In this document: in pieces, positions 2,063-38,861 of the stretch
Position numbering within the stretch: the first letter of the stretch is position 1
Layout: every line of letters starts with the position of its first letter
DNA from: a virus
Strand: one strand, 5' to 3'
DNA length: 39,491 nucleotides
UHGV virus genome: UHGV-0344222
Notes under the pieces: model-generated
Told to the model about the DNA's origin: nothing
Databases searched by the model: none
Seen by the model: the letters and a program-made list of their open reading frames with translations, nothing else
Program-made: the position numbers and the translations under genes

Positions 2063-2617
2063 TTGATGAGTATAGAAATGGATCCACTCGTTATTCTCGG
2101 ACGAGTGTTCAGTAATGAACCTCTGGAGAGAACCATGTATATGATCGTTATCTGGGTTGGACTTCTGCTTTTAAGCCCAGATAACTGGCCTGAATATGTT
2201 AATGAGAGAATCGGTATTCCTCATGTGTGGCATGTTTTCGTCTTTGCTCTTGCATTTTCGCTAGCAATTAATGTGCATCGATTATCAGCTATTGCCAGCG
2301 CCAGATATAAGCGATTTAAGCTAAGAAAACGCATTAAGATGCAAAACGATAAAGTGCGATCAGTAATTCAAAACCTTACAGAAGAGCAATCTATGGTTTT
2401 GTGCGCAGCCCTTAATGAAGGCAGGAAGTATGTGGTTACATCAAAACAATTCCCATACATTAGTGAGTTGATTGAGCTTGGTGTGTTGAACAAAACTTTT
2501 TCCCGATGGAACGGGAAGCATATATTATTCCCTATTGAGGATATTTACTGGACTGAATTAGTTGCCAGCTATGATCCATATAATATTGAGATAAAGCCAA
2601 GGCCAATATCTAAGTAA
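2063..2617 (+). CDS. sieB: SieB superinfection-exclusion (abortive infection) membrane protein
   Basis: 184-aa ORF with hydrophobic N-terminal segments, convergent with and abutting N, as sieB is in lambda. Confidence 0.65.
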   Translation: MMSIEMDPLVILGRVFSNEPLERTMYMIVIWVGLLLLSPDNWPEYVNERIGIPHVWHVFVFALAFSLAINVHRLSAIASARYKRFKLRKRIKMQNDKVRSVIQNLTEEQSMVLCAALNEGRKYVVTSKQFPYISELIELGVLNKTFSRWNGKHILFPIEDIYWTELVASYDPYNIEIKPRPISK

Positions 2618-2941: not shown

Positions 2942-3051
2942 CTGGATTCTCCTGCCAGTTAGCTTTGAGTAACGCGCCGTGATGCTTATCTCCACGGTTG
3001 CTGTCTTGCAGCTGCATTTCGCGCTACTCAAAGCCTTCTGCTTTGAATGCT

Positions 3052-3083
3052 GCCCTTCTTCAGGGCTAAATTTTTAAGAGCGT
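3052..3083 (-). promoter_or_regulatory. nutL (boxA CGCTCTTA and boxB GCCCTGAAGAAGGGC on the minus strand)
   Basis: Reverse complement of 3052-3083 gives boxA/boxB upstream of N. Confidence 0.8.
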
Positions 3084-3121
3084 CACCTTCATGGTGGTCA
3101 GTGCGTCCTGCTGATGTGCTT

Positions 3122-3185
3122 AGTATCACCGCTAGTGGTATTTATGTCAACACCGCCAGAGATAATTTATCACCGCAGATGGTTA
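3122..3185 (-). promoter_or_regulatory. pL promoter with operators OL1 (3124-3140), OL2 (3148-3164), OL3 (3169-3185)
   Basis: 17-bp operators recognisable; -35 TTGACA (rc of 3145-3150) and -10 GATACT (rc of 3122-3127). OL1 has one substitution versus reference lambda. Confidence 0.85.
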
Positions 3186-3340
3186 TCTGTATGTTTTTTA
3201 TATAGATTTATTTTTTGCAGGGTTGTGTGGATTGGGAAGGTGATCGAGAGATCTGAATTGCGATGTTTAGTGAGTTGTATCTATTAATTTCCAAATAAAT
3301 ACAATTGGTTATGTGTTCTTGGGTGAGGGGGATCGTGAGG

Positions 3341-3367
3341 CAAAGAAAACCCGGCTCTGTGGCCGGG
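3341..3367 (-). terminator. Rho-independent terminator downstream of the cI operon (t-imm-like)
   Basis: CCCGGC-TCTGTG-GCCGGG hairpin followed on the minus strand by a T-rich run, directly after the stop of the 3376..4137 gene. Confidence 0.6.
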
Positions 3368-3375
3368 AATAACAT

Positions 3376-4137
3376 TTAGGAATCAAGGTCAGGTAGCATG
3401 ATTTTCTCAATCAACGTCAATGCCCTTTGGTCTCGTTCAGCAAAATATTTAGGAGCGTACTGAGGCAGCCACACTTCGTTGAAGTGTTGTTTGAAATCTG
3501 CAAGATATTCGTTTGGGTATAGACGTACCGGGAATGTCCGGCCATCTGGGTACTCATGGTTATATGTTGGGAATGTCTTCGGCTCAACCCCCCGGTTGTC
3601 ACGGAGCCATTGCGAGAAAACCCTACCCTCTGAAATATCAGGGACCATTTTTTCTGGCAGCGTATATCCGGCCTGTTCAAGTGGCGCAACCAAGTTAAAC
3701 GTCAGTTCATTAAGCATAGAAAAGTGCGTATGAGGAACTCTGCCTCGGTTTGTCATATACCGCTTAAGGTGGATAGGGAGTTCGGCAGGCGCTCTTTCAC
3801 CTGACATCCACTCACGCACCCATCTCGATACTTGCACTGCAAATTTTGGAGATAGCCACTGAGCTAAATTAATTGCGATGTCTGGATGAACCCAAGTCCC
3901 TTGATTCTCTGCTCTTCCGCCTTTAAATGATTGAATTAACTCCGATATGGGAATCCCCATATCGCGTGATAATTCATCAAAAAAATCTTGTGTTGTTTTT
4001 AGTCGTGTATAGTCAGCAAGTAGCTTCCCCGCAGACTTGCACATCGCGGTGGCATTGATGTATCCGTCTTTGGTGCGAAGATGGATGACTTCTCCATCAA
4101 CTTCTCTAGCGATTAATGCAAGTTGAAACTGTGTCAT
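3376..4137 (-). CDS. KilA-N domain protein at the rexAB-equivalent locus (BstA-like abortive-infection candidate)
   Basis: 253 aa; N-terminal KilA-N-type motifs (DGYINAT..., GTWVHPDIAINLAQWLSPKFAVQVSRWV); starts 31 bp after the cI stop, same strand, ends at the t-imm-like terminator. Confidence 0.75.
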   Translation of the reverse strand: MTQFQLALIAREVDGEVIHLRTKDGYINATAMCKSAGKLLADYTRLKTTQDFFDELSRDMGIPISELIQSFKGGRAENQGTWVHPDIAINLAQWLSPKFAVQVSRWVREWMSGERAPAELPIHLKRYMTNRGRVPHTHFSMLNELTFNLVAPLEQAGYTLPEKMVPDISEGRVFSQWLRDNRGVEPKTFPTYNHEYPDGRTFPVRLYPNEYLADFKQHFNEVWLPQYAPKYFAERDQRALTLIEKIMLPDLDS

Positions 4138-4168
4138 AAATCATCCTATTACGTGAAAAATAAAACAA

Positions 4169-4885
<717 letters not shown>

Positions 4886-4892
4886 TTAAATC

Positions 4893-4957
4893 TATCACCG
4901 CAAGGGATAAATATCCAACACCGTGCGTGTTGACTATTTTACCTCTAGCGGTGATAA
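4893..4957. promoter_or_regulatory. OR3 (4893-4909), OR2 (4917-4933), OR1 (4940-4956) with pR (-35 TTGACT 4930-4935, -10 GATAAT 4952-4957) and divergent pRM
   Basis: Operators and promoter hexamers read directly; OR1 and OR2 each differ from reference lambda at one base. Confidence 0.9.
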
Positions 4958-4973
4958 TGGTTGCATGTACTAA

Positions 4974-5183
<210 letters not shown>

Positions 5184-5190
5184 ATAACCC

Positions 5191-5222
5191 CGCTCTTACA
5201 CATCCCAGCCCTGAAAAAGGGC
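5191..5222 (+). promoter_or_regulatory. nutR (boxA CGCTCTTA 5191-5198; boxB GCCCTGAAAAAGGGC 5208-5222)
   Basis: Direct sequence match to the lambda nut consensus downstream of cro. Confidence 0.85.
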
Positions 5223-5301
5223 ATCAAATTAAACCACACCTATGGTGTATGCATTTATTTGCATACATTCAATCAATTGTTATCTAAGGAAATACTTACA
5301 T

Positions 5302-7585: not shown

Positions 7586-8026
7586 ATGAAAAAACTAACC
7601 TTTGAAATTCGATCTCCAGCACATCAGCAAAACGCTATTCACGCAGTACAGCAAATCCTTCCAGACCCAACCAAACCAATCGTAGTAACCATTCAGGAAC
7701 GCAACCGCAGCTTAGACCAAAACAGGAAGCTATGGGCCTGCTTAGGTGACGTCTCCCGTCAGGTTGAATGGCATGGTCGCTGGCTGGATGCAGAAAGCTG
7801 GAAGTGTGTGTTTACCGCAGCATTAAAGCAGCAGGATGTTGTTCCTAACCTTGCCGGGAATGGCTTTGTGGTAATAGGCCAGTCAACCAGCAGGATGCGT
7901 GTAGGCGAATTTGCGGAGCTATTAGAGCTTATACAGGCATTCGGTACAGAGCGTGGCGTTAAGTGGTCAGACGAAGCGAGACTGGCTCTGGAGTGGAAAG
8001 CGAGATGGGGAGATCGGGCTGCATGA
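7586..8026 (+). CDS. ninB: NinB (Orf-family recombination mediator)
   Basis: MKKLTFEIRSPAHQQNAIHAVQQILPDPTKP... from the ATG at 7586. Confidence 0.9.
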   Translation: MKKLTFEIRSPAHQQNAIHAVQQILPDPTKPIVVTIQERNRSLDQNRKLWACLGDVSRQVEWHGRWLDAESWKCVFTAALKQQDVVPNLAGNGFVVIGQSTSRMRVGEFAELLELIQAFGTERGVKWSDEARLALEWKARWGDRAA

Positions 8027-8550
8027 CTATCAAATCAAATACGCCAGCACACGACAAGGACTGCTGGCAAACGCCGCTTTGGCTTTTTGATGCACTGGAT
8101 ATTGAGTTTGGATTCTGGCTGGATTCGGCAGCGAGCGACAAAAATGCTCTGTGTGCTCACTGGCTAACTGAGGCCGACGACGCGCTCAATTCTGAGTGGG
8201 TAAGCCACGGTGCAATCTGGAATAACCCACCGTACAGCAATATCAGGCCGTGGGTGGAAAAAGCCGCTGAGCAGTGCAGACAACAGCGACAGACGGTAGT
8301 TATGCTTGTGCCAGAGGATATGTCAGTCGGATGGTTCAGCAAGGCTCTGGAGAGTGTCGACGAAGTTCGCATTATCACTGATGGACGGATTAATTTTATC
8401 GAACCATCGACAGGGCTGGAGAAGAAGGGAAACAGCAAAGGCTCCATGCTGCTGATTTGGCGACCGTTCATCAGTCCTCGACGGATGTTTACTACCGTAT
8501 CCAAAGCGGCATTGATGGCGATCGGGCAGGGCGTCAGGAGGGCGGCATGA
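8023..8550 (+). CDS. Phage-type DNA N6-adenine methyltransferase (orphan, no cognate nuclease seen)
   Basis: NPPY catalytic motif ([13 protein letters not shown]); ATGA overlap with the ninB stop; occupies the ninC/ninD position. Confidence 0.8.
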
Positions 8551-34932: not shown

Positions 34933-37900
34933 GTGAATATGGCAGTAAAGATTTCAGGTGTACTGAAAGACGGCACAGGAAAACCGGTACAGAACTGCAC
35001 AATCCAGCTGAAAGCAAAACGTAACAGTACCACTGTGGTGGTGAACACGCTGGCCTCAGAAAATCCGGATGAAGCCGGGCGTTACAGCATGGACGTTGAG
35101 TACGGTCAGTACAGCGTTATTCTGTTGGTGGAAGGATTCCCGCCGTCACATGCCGGGACCATCACCGTGTATGAAGATTCTCAACCCGGTACGCTGAATG
35201 ATTTTCTCGGTGCCATGACGGAGGATGATGCCCGTCCGGAGGCACTGCGTCGTTTTGAACTGATGGTGGAAGAGGTGGCGCGTAACGCGTCCGTGGTGGC
35301 ACAGAACACGGCAGCCGCAAAGAAGTCAGCCAGTGATGCCAGCACATCTGCCAGTGAGGCGGCAACCCGTGCGACTGATGCTGCAGATTCAGCACGTGCA
35401 GCCAGCACGTCAGCCGGACAGGCCGCGTCGTCGGCTCAGTCAGCGTCTTCCAGCGCAGGAACGGCATCAACAAAGGCCACTGAAGCCTCAAAAAGTGCTG
35501 CCGCTGCAGAGTCCTCAAAAAGCGCGGCGGCTACCAGTGCCGGTGCGGCGAAAACGTCAGAAACGAATGCGGCAGTGTCAGAACAATCAGCCGCCACTTC
35601 TGCATCCACCGCGACCACGAAAGCGTCAGAAGCTGCCACCTCAGCCAGGGATGCGTCGGCTTCAAAAGAGGCGGCAAAATCATCAGAAACGAACGCATCA
35701 TCAAGCGCCAGTAGTGCAGCTTCCTCGGCAACGGCGGCAGGAAATTCCGCGAAGGCGGCAAAGACGTCTGAGACAAACGCCAGGTCCTCTGAAACGGCAG
35801 CAGCACAGAGTGCCTCCGCAGCAGCAGGCTCAAAAACAGCGGCTGTGTCGTCGGCCAGTGCCGCGTCAACAAGTGCCGGGCAGGCCTCAGCCAGTGCCAC
35901 CGCCGCCGGAAAATCGGCAGAAAGCGCCGCGTCGTCCGCTTCAACAGCCACAACGAAGGCTGGCGAAGCCACTGAACAGGCCAGCGCAGCAGCGAGGTCT
36001 GCTTCCGCAGCGAAGACATCCGAAACGAACGCGAAAGCGTCGGAAACCAACGCAGAATCCTCAAAAACGGCTGCCGCATCGTCCGCCAGTTCGGCGGCGT
36101 CATCGGCATCATCGGCGTCTGCTTCAAAAGATGAGGCGACCAGACAGGCGTCAGCAGCGAGGGGCAGCGCCACGACGGCATCCACGAAGGCGACAGAGGC
36201 TGCTGGCAGTGCGGCAGCGGCAGCACAGAGCAAAAGTACGGCAGAATCCGCAGCAACGCGCGCTGAGACAGCGGCAAAACGGGCAGAGGATATTGCATCC
36301 GCCGTGGCGCTTGAGGATGCGAGCACGACGAAAAAGGGGATAGTACAGCTCAGCAGTGCGACTAACAGCACGTCTGAAACGCTGGCGGCAACGCCAAAGG
36401 CAGTAAAAGCAGCCTATGACAATGCAGAGAAACGTCTGCAGAAAGACCAGAACGGTGCTGATATTCCCGACAAGGACCGCTTCCTGAGTAACATTAATGT
36501 TTACAGCAAAGGTGAAGTGGATCAGAAAAAGGGGATGCGATACGTTGTGGTAAATGCCCCGGCGGGTGTCCAGGAAGGTAAATATTATCCGTTAGTGATA
36601 AAAAGGAATGACAGCCATCGGGCATCCCGCGTTGTCATTTCAACGCCAAGTCGCTTAGCTAATCACAGAATGAATAATTGTGAGTTTAATGGTTTTGTTT
36701 GCGCAGGCGGCTGGACGGACCGGGGTAGCTATGCCTGTGGTATGTTCTGGGCTTATTCATCATCGGAACGCGCTATTCATTCCATTCTGATGAGTAATAA
36801 AGGCGATACCGTAGACAGCGTATTCTATATAGAAGGTGGGGCATTTCCCGTAGAGGTCTTTTTAGAAGAAGGTCTCTCCGTTACTGCACCTGCTTCTGAT
36901 TATATTGTTGCTGAAACGACTTATAAATTTGGCGCAACTGATCCTTATTCTGAATCAGTTGCGGTAAATTTAATTTTAGATTTTAAACAAGGTAATGGAT
37001 TTTATAGTTCGTATCCTGTTTTGAGTAAGTCAGACATTAGCGGGAATAAGATTTACGCTAATGATGAAGTTATTGTCCGTAGTCAGAACGCGTTAAGGAT
37101 GATTGCAGGTGATTACGGTGTCATATGGCGAAATGATGGAGCAAATACTTACTTGCTCATGACTGATAAAGGCGACCAGTACGGTGGCTGGAACGGTCTT
37201 CGACCATTTGCAGTAAATAACGCAACAGGTGAAGTGACGATCAATACACCACTTAATTCTCCTAAGGGGATTAAGGGAAATTCTGATACAGCTACGAAAC
37301 TTCAGACAGCAATAAAAATATCTGGTGTTTCGTTTGATGGTTCTACTGATATCACTTTAACCGCTGCGCATGTTGCTGCTTTTGCCAGAAGAGCAACGGA
37401 TACGTATGCCGATGCGGATGGGGGCGTTCCCTGGAATGCCGAATCAGGCGCTTACAATGTCACTCGCTCTGGCGACAGCTATATTCTGGTTAACTTCTAT
37501 ACCGGAGTCGGAAGTTGCCGGACCTTGCAGATGAAGGCGCATTACAGAAATGGTGGTCTGTTCTACCGTTCTTCAAGAGACGGTTATGGTTTTGAGGAAG
37601 ACTGGGCAGAAGTTTATACCTCGAAAAATCTTCCACCAGAAAGCTACCCAGTCGGCGCACCAATCCCGTGGCCATCAGATACCGTTCCGTCTGGTTATGC
37701 CCTGATGCAGGGGCAGACTTTTGACAAATCTGCTTACCCGAAACTTGCAGCTGCTTATCCGTCAGGCGTGATCCCTGATATGCGTGGCTGGATGATTAAG
37801 GGCAAGCCCGCCAGTGATCGAGCCGTATTGTCTCAGGAACAGGACGGCATTAAATCACACACCCACAGCGCCAGCGTATCCAGTACGGATTTGGGGACGA

Positions 37901-38286
37901 AAACCACATCGTCGTTTGATTACGGCACTAAATCCACGAATAACACTGGTGCGCATACCCATAGTGTTAGCGGTACGGCTGCTTCAGCCGGTGCACATAC
38001 CCATTCGATGACATTTGTTTCAGGTGGTTCCAGTGGTGCTCCGGGAAGTGGAGCATCTGATTATTCTAAATACAGTGTTAACACTTCTTCTGCAGGCGCT
38101 CATACGCACTCTGTATCGGGTACTGCTGCAAGCGCAGGTGCACACGCGCATACTGTCGGTATTGGTGCTCATACGCACTCCGTTGCGATTGGCTCACATG
38201 GACACACCATCACCGTTAACGCTGCTGGTAACGCGGAAAACACCGTCAAAAATATCGCATTTAACTATATTGTGAGGCTTGCATAA
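34933..38286 (+). CDS. stf: Side tail fiber protein Stf (1117 aa) with long Ala/Ser-rich repeat region and His-rich C-terminal repeats
   Basis: N-terminus [26 protein letters not shown]... lambda Stf-like; repeats SAxxAxxSASSA... and [17 protein letters not shown] (twice). Confidence 0.92.
35300..36300 (+). repeat. Intragenic low-complexity tandem repeats (Ala/Ser/Thr-rich) within stf
   Basis: Reiterated GCx-AGC/TCx codon blocks; explains the long spurious ORFs on other frames and the antisense strand. Confidence 0.7.
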
Positions 38287-38861
38287 TGGCATTCAGAATG
38301 AGTGAACAAGCACGGACCATAAAAATTTATAATCTGCTGGCCGGAACTAATGAATTTATTGGTAAAGGTGACGCATATATTCCGCCTCATACAGGTCTGC
38401 CAGCAAACAGTACCGATATTGCACCGCCAGATATTCCGGCTGGCTTTGTGGCTGTTTTCAACAGTGATGAGGCATCGTGGCATCTCGTTGAAGATCATCG
38501 GGGAAAAACCGTCTATGACGTGGCTTCCGGCGACGCGTTATTTATTTCTGAACTTGGCTCGTTACCGGAAAATGTCACCTGGTTATCGCCGGAAGGGGAA
38601 TATCAGAAGTGGAACGGCACAGCCTGGGTGAAGGATACGGAAGCAGAAAAACTGTTCCGGATCCGGGAGGCGGAAGAAACAAAAAACAGCCTGATGCAGG
38701 TAGCCAGTGAGCATATAGCGCCACTTCAGGATGCTGTAGATCTGGAAATTGCAACGGAGGAAGAAATCTCGTTGCTGGAAGCATGGAAAAAGTATCGGGT
38801 ATTGCTGAACCGTGTTGATACGTCAACTTCACAGGATATTGAATGGCCAGCACTGCCGTAG
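38286..38861 (+). CDS. tfa: Tail fiber assembly protein Tfa
   Basis: 191 aa [48 protein letters not shown]... Confidence 0.93.

Follow-up and report, generated by a model that had tools for sequence, protein, structure and literature searches.

The window analysed here, the whole stretch of 39,491 nucleotides of viral DNA, belongs to a lambdoid phage or prophage that has the immunity of lambda. Behind its cI gene it carries a 253-aa gene whose RefSeq record (WP_000191544.1) reads 'KilA-N domain-containing protein'. The features of this region are as follows.

3150..3122, minus strand: promoter pL, hexamers as in lambda.
3340..3367, minus strand: t-imm-type intrinsic terminator, hairpin CCCGGCCACAGAGCCGGG followed by a TTTTCTTTGC tail, with the scan placing hairpin and tail at 3367..3350 (terminator scan; alignment to lambda).
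3368..4167, minus strand: 800-bp cassette in place of rexB, rexA and the cI-rexA spacer, lambda 35825-37225 (blastn breakpoints; lambda annotation).
3376..4137, minus strand: 253-aa gene, ATG start, TAA stop (ORF list; Pfam, PADLOC and PHROG matches).
3427..3780, minus strand: BstA C-terminal domain, aa about 120-237 (PADLOC BstA model, E 2.5e-20).
3802..4101, minus strand: KilA-N (APSES-type) DNA-binding domain, aa 13-112 (Pfam KilA-N, E 8.2e-27).
3943..3964, unstranded: palindrome CGATATGGGgATTCCCATATCG in the KilA-N coding sequence, codons 58-65 (R-D-M-G-I-P-I-S), a candidate cis element.
4138..4195, minus strand: upstream unit of about 58 nt that moves together with the gene, comprising AGGA, an AT-rich spacer and 27 nt from the end of cI (alignment of 12 contexts; ungapped comparison).
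4169..4882, minus strand: lambda cI repressor, HTH_3 plus Peptidase_S24 (Pfam; 99% DNA identity to lambda).
4930..4958, plus strand: promoter pR, hexamers as in lambda.

A spacer of 31 nt (4138-4168) separates the cI stop from the ATG of the 253-aa gene, and a Shine-Dalgarno sequence, AGGA, lies at 4144-4147, 7-10 nt 5' of this start. At the other end, the terminator (6-bp all-G:C stem, 6-nt loop) begins 8 nt past the TAA and aligns with the lambda hairpin just past rexB, which we take to be t-imm, where the pRM transcript of cI, rexA and rexB ends. Blastn equates window 3029-3367 with lambda 35496-35824 at 91% identity and window 4168-5300 with lambda 37226-38358 at 99%; since lambda homology is interrupted at 3367/3368 and 4167/4168, positions 3368-4167 substitute for lambda 35825-37225. 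An earlier note, made from the letters alone, had placed the ORF 31 bp past the cI stop on the same strand, had seen it end at a t-imm-like hairpin and had assigned it to the rexA/rexB slot; the ORF coordinates, the hairpin alignment with its 8-nt distance and the lambda breakpoints, respectively, bear this placement out. A scan of the window revealed no promoter-like or terminator-like site between cI and the 253-aa gene. A promoter within the 58-nt upstream unit was considered separately and rejected, as its best hexamers match at 3/6 and 4/6 positions, it would cut off the Shine-Dalgarno sequence, and the scan was negative there too. Elsewhere in the window, a 184-aa ORF at 2063-2617 (plus strand) occupies the position of lambda sieB (superinfection exclusion), with DNA 99% identical to lambda over 2501-2967. 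Another nearby accessory gene, a 195-aa ORF at 7963-8550 (plus strand), contains, as read from the translation, an NPPY motif typical of DNA N6-adenine methyltransferases.

Profile searches assign both halves of the 253-aa protein. The KilA-N motifs that the earlier note had recognized at the N-terminus correspond to the Pfam domain at aa 13-112, and the C-terminal 140 aa, which it had regarded as unassigned, turned out to contain the BstA C-terminal domain. The BstA-like architecture that it had proposed is supported by the PADLOC BstA model, by a full-length match to PHROG 6287 ('BstA abortive infection system, replication inhibitor', E 1.8e-82) and by the precomputed annotation of the close homologues, all of which carry PF04383 (KilA-N) plus PF26567 (BstA_C). 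BstA_C was read from this precomputed annotation, as the Pfam set that we scanned was without the PF26567 model. The N-domain is also matched by PHROG 129 ('transcriptional regulator'). In the Pfam scan the protein gave KilA-N only and no ANT domain (KilAC, PF03374), which the same scan detected in a control KilA-N protein with ANT. No Rex match was found in Pfam or PHROGs, NCBIfam holds no model for the protein, a PDB sequence search returned marginal Mbp1 matches only, and no solved structural relative of the C-domain was found. Similarity to the APSES domains of yeast Mbp1 and Bqt4 is likewise marginal (E 0.04), and these are eukaryotic transcription or telomere-tethering factors without BstA_C. 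The gene is under strong purifying selection: against an allele of 86% identity, pN is 0.09 and pS 0.74, with a dN/dS of about 0.03 at a dS near saturation. Because of these values and the strong domain matches, we regard the ORF as a real gene.

BstA proteins are prophage proteins that are often placed behind the repressor (Owen et al. 2021, PMC8585504), and this arrangement is therefore already published. Abortive infection, in which BstA blocks the replication of phage DNA, has been measured for the proteins of BTP1, Klebsiella and E. coli, and a cognate 63-bp DNA element, aba, which covers the start codon and has terminal CCCGCC repeats, neutralizes BstA (PMC8585504). Among the three tested proteins, identity to BstA-BTP1 is 41.7-48.4% (PMC8585504). 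As in the window, the genes of BstA-BTP1, BstA-Ec and BstA-Kp lie directly behind a cI-type repressor and end at a terminator, and the BstA-BTP1 group likewise combines two domains, an N-terminal KilA-N-type domain and BstA_C. Alignment of the window protein (253 aa) with BstA-BTP1 (307 aa) succeeded for the C-domain and failed for the N-domain. BLASTP aligns only aa 133-251, at 29% identity, and hhalign of the two family alignments joins the C-domains (97.9% probability, E 4e-13) and gives no alignment of the N-domains. In the PADLOC BstA model, the window protein scores 70.8 bits over positions 149-271 of 292 (42% of its length), whereas BstA-BTP1 scores 412.5 bits over positions 3-291. BLASTP and PADLOC thus both fail to connect the window protein along its entire length with a BstA that has been tested by experiment; PHROG 6287 does span this length. 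The window protein has a canonical Pfam KilA-N domain; BstA of BTP1 and its relatives, in contrast, carry PF26567 only and were negative in the Pfam KilA-N scan. Within the C-domain, BstA-BTP1 and the window protein have the motifs P..HFS..E, VPDIS.G, H.YPD and YP...L..F in common, and 14 residues are invariant in both subfamilies (R126, N130, P135, S140, E144, D167, S169, G171, W177, H194, Y207, P208, F215 and Y231).

By these alignments the 253-aa gene is a new member, or subfamily, of the BstA family, set apart from the three tested BstA proteins. The family annotation itself, judged by the profiles, is correct and not new in kind, as PHROGs, PADLOC and Pfam already point to BstA. Table S1 of PMC8585504 closes with homologues matched over the C-terminal region only, including a protein of the Psychrobacter plasmid PsyG_4. 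This protein has the KilA-N + BstA_C architecture and matches aa 1-239 of the window protein at 40% identity; the subfamily was therefore seen in the BstA paper, where it was not studied. Our literature search found no demonstration of abortive infection by any member of the KilA-N + BstA_C subfamily, and nothing relevant on PhiR5_2, the lambda-immunity phages HK244 and mEp332, later BstA mechanism or a KilA-N palindrome. In deposited records of lambda-immunity phages (HK244, HK542, HK544 and mEp332), rex is replaced by other genes. Lambda RexA and RexB fill the same slot as the window gene, from the cI stop to t-imm, and, like them, it is presumably expressed from pRM in lysogens and presumably keeps out other phages by abortive infection. 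Unlike RexA and RexB, it is one gene in place of two, includes no RexB-like membrane protein and has no sequence relationship to either.

Phage PhiR5_2 and E. coli ML35 have an identical gene behind lambda cI. Among 5,426 complete E. coli genomes, about 22 carry this allele at 95% identity or more, and another 117 carry a relative of 60-80% DNA identity. In 80 viral contigs, alleles of at least 92% identity lie 31 to 354 nt behind HTH + Peptidase_S24 repressors, which fall into at least eight sequence types. All of these copies, behind their different repressors, have the approximately 58 nt 5' of the ATG in common, including the last 27 nt of lambda cI (CAGTGGCCAGAAGAGACGTTTGGGTGA, window 4169-4195), which move with the cassette. 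Behind unrelated repressors, these 27 nt are kept as a non-coding remnant in the alignment of 12 contexts (L015, L020, L031, L033 and L038), and L031 and L033 contain two copies of it. A recombination junction, as read from this alignment, lies within the end of cI. Downstream of the gene, a hairpin terminator of one of two variants is found in nearly all contexts. The occurrence of a near-identical gene behind at least eight different cI-type repressors identifies a mobile immunity-region cassette, and the common upstream unit, the switching of repressors and the terminator behind the stop indicate that this cassette is promoter-less and moves between immunity regions. The gene can also be lost, as frameshifted copies behind lambda cI (L072-L078, L081, L084) are apparently pseudogenes of the window allele: they match over 757-758 nt instead of 759, with a protein break at about nt 549-636.

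An 80% homologue in a Proteus phage also lies directly behind a cI gene. The 86% E. coli allele, in contrast, resides outside the immunity region: it stands alone in the nin/Q region, in divergent orientation to a hok gene. It comprises about 355 member sequences (L004:4001-4774; L011:3474-4242; L054-L067) and bears no relationship to the window allele in the first 33 nt of the gene or in the DNA upstream. Farther homologues occur in a P4-like element, in a chromosomal island that also has a RES-Xre toxin pair, and elsewhere. Many homologues do not adjoin a repressor. The family comprises 2,748 clusters at E <= 0.001. KilA-N + BstA_C proteins with 53-63% identity to the window protein are found in Alpha-, Beta- and Gammaproteobacteria, Verrucomicrobiota, Planctomycetes, Nitrospirota and candidate phyla; the same set (loci L094-L173) includes Myxococcales, Armatimonadota and Gracilibacteria/Peribacteria MAGs. 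Judged by these identities, conservation across phyla is unusually high for a mobile defence gene, and KilA-N + BstA_C is a separate, very widespread subfamily.

By analogy with BstA, we propose that the gene is probably expressed with cI in the lysogen and acts as a prophage defence by abortive infection. To the architecture, slot and cassette behaviour observed at the locus, family membership would add co-transcription, exclusion and a replication block. The gene would be transcribed together with cI from pRM, as rexA and rexB are in lambda. Its KilA-N domain would bind the replicating DNA of a superinfecting phage, and the BstA_C domain would then block phage DNA replication, so that the infected cell dies without progeny. 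More tentatively, a cognate DNA element, situated in the gene or close to it, could spare the prophage's own lytic growth.

Two other roles for the protein have to be weighed against this proposal. Modulation of the lysis-lysogeny switch has been proposed for lambda RexA, and a protein in the rexA slot could regulate the prophage's own switch, through operators or induction, instead of serving in defence. The KilA-N fold is known from DNA-binding transcription factors, in line with the match of the N-domain to PHROG 129, and the conserved palindrome could be an autoregulatory operator in the protein's own gene; RexA-like DNA-binding proteins left of cI have moreover been noted (PMC12315714). 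We nevertheless consider such a regulator improbable, because the near-identical gene stands behind eight unrelated repressors with different operators, which speaks against a repressor-specific partner, because its C-domain is BstA_C, and because many homologues lie outside prophages. The second role is that of an antirepressor or host-killing protein active in lytic growth, of the P1 KilA or KilA-N-ANT type. P1 KilA and many antirepressors have KilA-N as their N-domain, the N-domains of P1 KilA, of KilA-N + ANT antirepressors and of KilA-N + MUG113/T5orf172 proteins are homologous to that of the window protein, and KilA-N + ANT genes contain the same internal palindrome. The window gene differs from these other KilA-N genes in its C-domain, which is BstA_C and not ANT/KilAC, and in its position inside the lysogenic immunity transcript. 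A gene on the cI strand that ends at t-imm is expected to be expressed in the lysogen, where such an activity would be self-defeating, and this makes the second role highly improbable.

If the gene is, as we favour, a BstA-like defence gene, the best candidate for the self-sparing element would be the palindrome at 3943-3964, and not a BTP1-like element over the start codon. The 63-bp BTP1-type aba with CCCGCC repeats at the start codon is missing from the window gene: the locus contains no CCCGCC-N-CCCGCC and no conserved repeat over the start codon, which is crossed only by an 8/9 inverted repeat with an RNA fold no better than that of shuffles (z -0.60). Since aba elements are variant-specific, the absence of the BTP1 sequence says little. 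The search for an internal aba-like repeat that the earlier note had recommended had a divided outcome: no BTP1-type element was found, but the conserved internal palindrome emerged as a candidate, which is not specific to BstA_C. BTP1-type bstA genes, in turn, lack this internal palindrome, and a scan of them for an equivalent found none that is conserved.

The window contains a single copy of the palindrome, where chance would give 0. It is imperfect there, with 9-bp arms and a GGGG centre, and most other alleles contain the perfect 22-mer CGATATGGGAATTCCCATATCG (D-M-G-I-P-I-S). Synonymous divergence of the gene from two diverged alleles is saturated except at codons 51-80 (pS 0.17-0.37), which contain the palindrome. 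More distant alleles exhibit paired changes, namely CGAAACGGGAATTCCCGTTTCG (E-T-G-I-P-V-S), CGATGCGGGAATTCCCGCATCG (D-A-G-I-P-A-S), GTCTATGGGAATTCCCATAGAC (S-M-G-I-P-I-D) and CGATATCGGTATACCGATATCG (D-I-G-I-P-I-S). Compensatory substitutions, which in some cases alter amino acids, thus preserve the palindrome in different phyla. Complementary pairs number 10.2 out of 11 in 66 distinct homologues that have the G-I-P motif, whereas reshuffling of synonymous codons predicts 7.3, and the number is 3.9 in the 39 homologues that lack the motif. The inner helix is 94.6% paired over 57 aligned sequences, with changes on both sides at 8 of the 11 pairs. For the palindrome plus three flanking pairs, the covariation score in these 57 sequences is 0.347, compared with 0.121 after shuffling (0 of 500 shuffles reach it) and 0.04-0.10 with the partners slid. 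All of these statistics are subject to two limits, as the sequences were picked by amino-acid motif and are related to one another. The proline codon provides a clean case of synonymous covariation, being CCC opposite G and CCG opposite C.

Whether selection acts on the DNA or on the transcript bears on a different reading, in which the palindrome is an mRNA hairpin (for stability, processing or translation rate) or a recombination-prone palindrome, and in either case unrelated to self-immunity. The sense-strand RNA of the region folds well (-21.6 kcal/mol, z = -4.95), which may point to an RNA hairpin, as may a possible outer stem rich in G-U pairs. Mismatches within the arms, however, comprise 6 G-U and 8 A-C cells and hence have no bias towards sense-strand G-U, and the centre-adjacent pair covaries (A-T, T-A), although these bases would be unable to pair in a hairpin. 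An outer stem extending the palindrome was rejected, as its pairing of 69.9% is mostly explained by column composition (66.4%), and it is missing from the orphan palindrome copies described below. With no G-U excess, a covarying central pair and a weak outer stem, we lean towards a strand-symmetric duplex site, even though the sense-strand fold points the other way.

Beyond BstA_C genes, the palindrome is found in KilA-N genes of Bacteroides phages and cyanophages, and in KilA-N genes with ANT, MUG113 or unassigned C-domains; it is therefore tied to KilA-N and not to BstA_C. KilA-N members with a D-x-G-I-P-x-S motif carry the internal palindrome. The exact 20-mer is present in at least 120 viral contigs, and among the matches listed about 30 lie inside KilA-N ORFs, while about 85 of these contigs (again among the matches listed) contain an orphan 36-nt island with a perfect palindrome. 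In lambdoid nin regions, the island is adjacent to hok/sok within non-coding DNA, and the remainder of the KilA-N/BstA_C gene is absent there. One example, L260:2656-2691, is near a sok match (L260:2437-2612) and equals L011:3644-3679. The 201 nt around the island are nearly whole in 667 of the 5,426 E. coli genomes, and blastn of the phage collection also located these surroundings in PPompW and Stx2a phages. Megablast of the island against the same collection gave no match, whereas the more sensitive blastn did. An arm-free search yielded further perfect variants in short-ORF, apparently non-coding contexts. Because the orphan searches required the core sequence, preferential retention of the palindrome in gene remnants cannot be shown from these counts. 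The orphan island could be a decoy site or a deletion scar.

We give the reading as mRNA hairpin or recombination-prone palindrome slightly less than an even chance. The good sense-strand fold, the presence of the palindrome in KilA-N genes with other C-domains, and orphan copies that could be deletion scars are in its favour; the arm mismatches, the covarying centre-adjacent pair, the weak outer stem and the perfect arms retained by orphans in non-coding DNA argue against it. The palindrome may also be an autoregulatory operator of KilA-N proteins generally. The most far-reaching proposal, which we put forward tentatively and hold to be rather unlikely, is that the palindrome is both the recognition site of KilA-N itself and the aba-equivalent self-immunity element of the subfamily. 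Under this proposal, the many site copies of a replicating prophage would titrate or switch off the protein, the covarying arm variants would confer cognate specificity on the alleles, and the orphans, found near hok/sok in hundreds of lambdoid prophages of E. coli, would serve as stand-alone decoys that enable escape. The proposal of self-immunity is attractive because the palindrome is inseparable from the gene and variable between alleles, and because the orphans would be natural decoys.

BstA belongs to the few defence systems for which a self-immunity mechanism has been described, and here a BstA-type gene is set in the best-understood context, that of lambda immunity, with pRM, t-imm and phages of E. 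coli K-12 such as PhiR5_2. Standard lambda genetics can therefore address exclusion, self-immunity and joint transcription with cI, and a functional result would annotate many genes that are now named only 'KilA-N domain-containing protein'. The palindrome is a concrete 22-bp candidate for a cis element, possibly the first binding site for bacterial or phage KilA-N domains. The added value of the locus thus consists in a lambda-based test bed, a separate and widespread KilA-N + BstA_C subfamily and a conserved palindrome.

Two single cases may be recorded in addition. One IMG/VR contig combines a cI-linked gene identical to that of the window (L014:3001-3759, with the imperfect GGGG centre) with a second, perfect palindrome (L258:10625-10644) at a distance of about 5.6 kb from this gene. 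In an AT-rich, giant-virus-like sequence (L352), a 471-aa ORF encodes a zinc-finger-like N-terminus, KilA-N and a MUG113/T5orf172-type C-terminus; its protein has two tandem DMGIPI motifs, and its gene contains the exact 20-mer palindrome.
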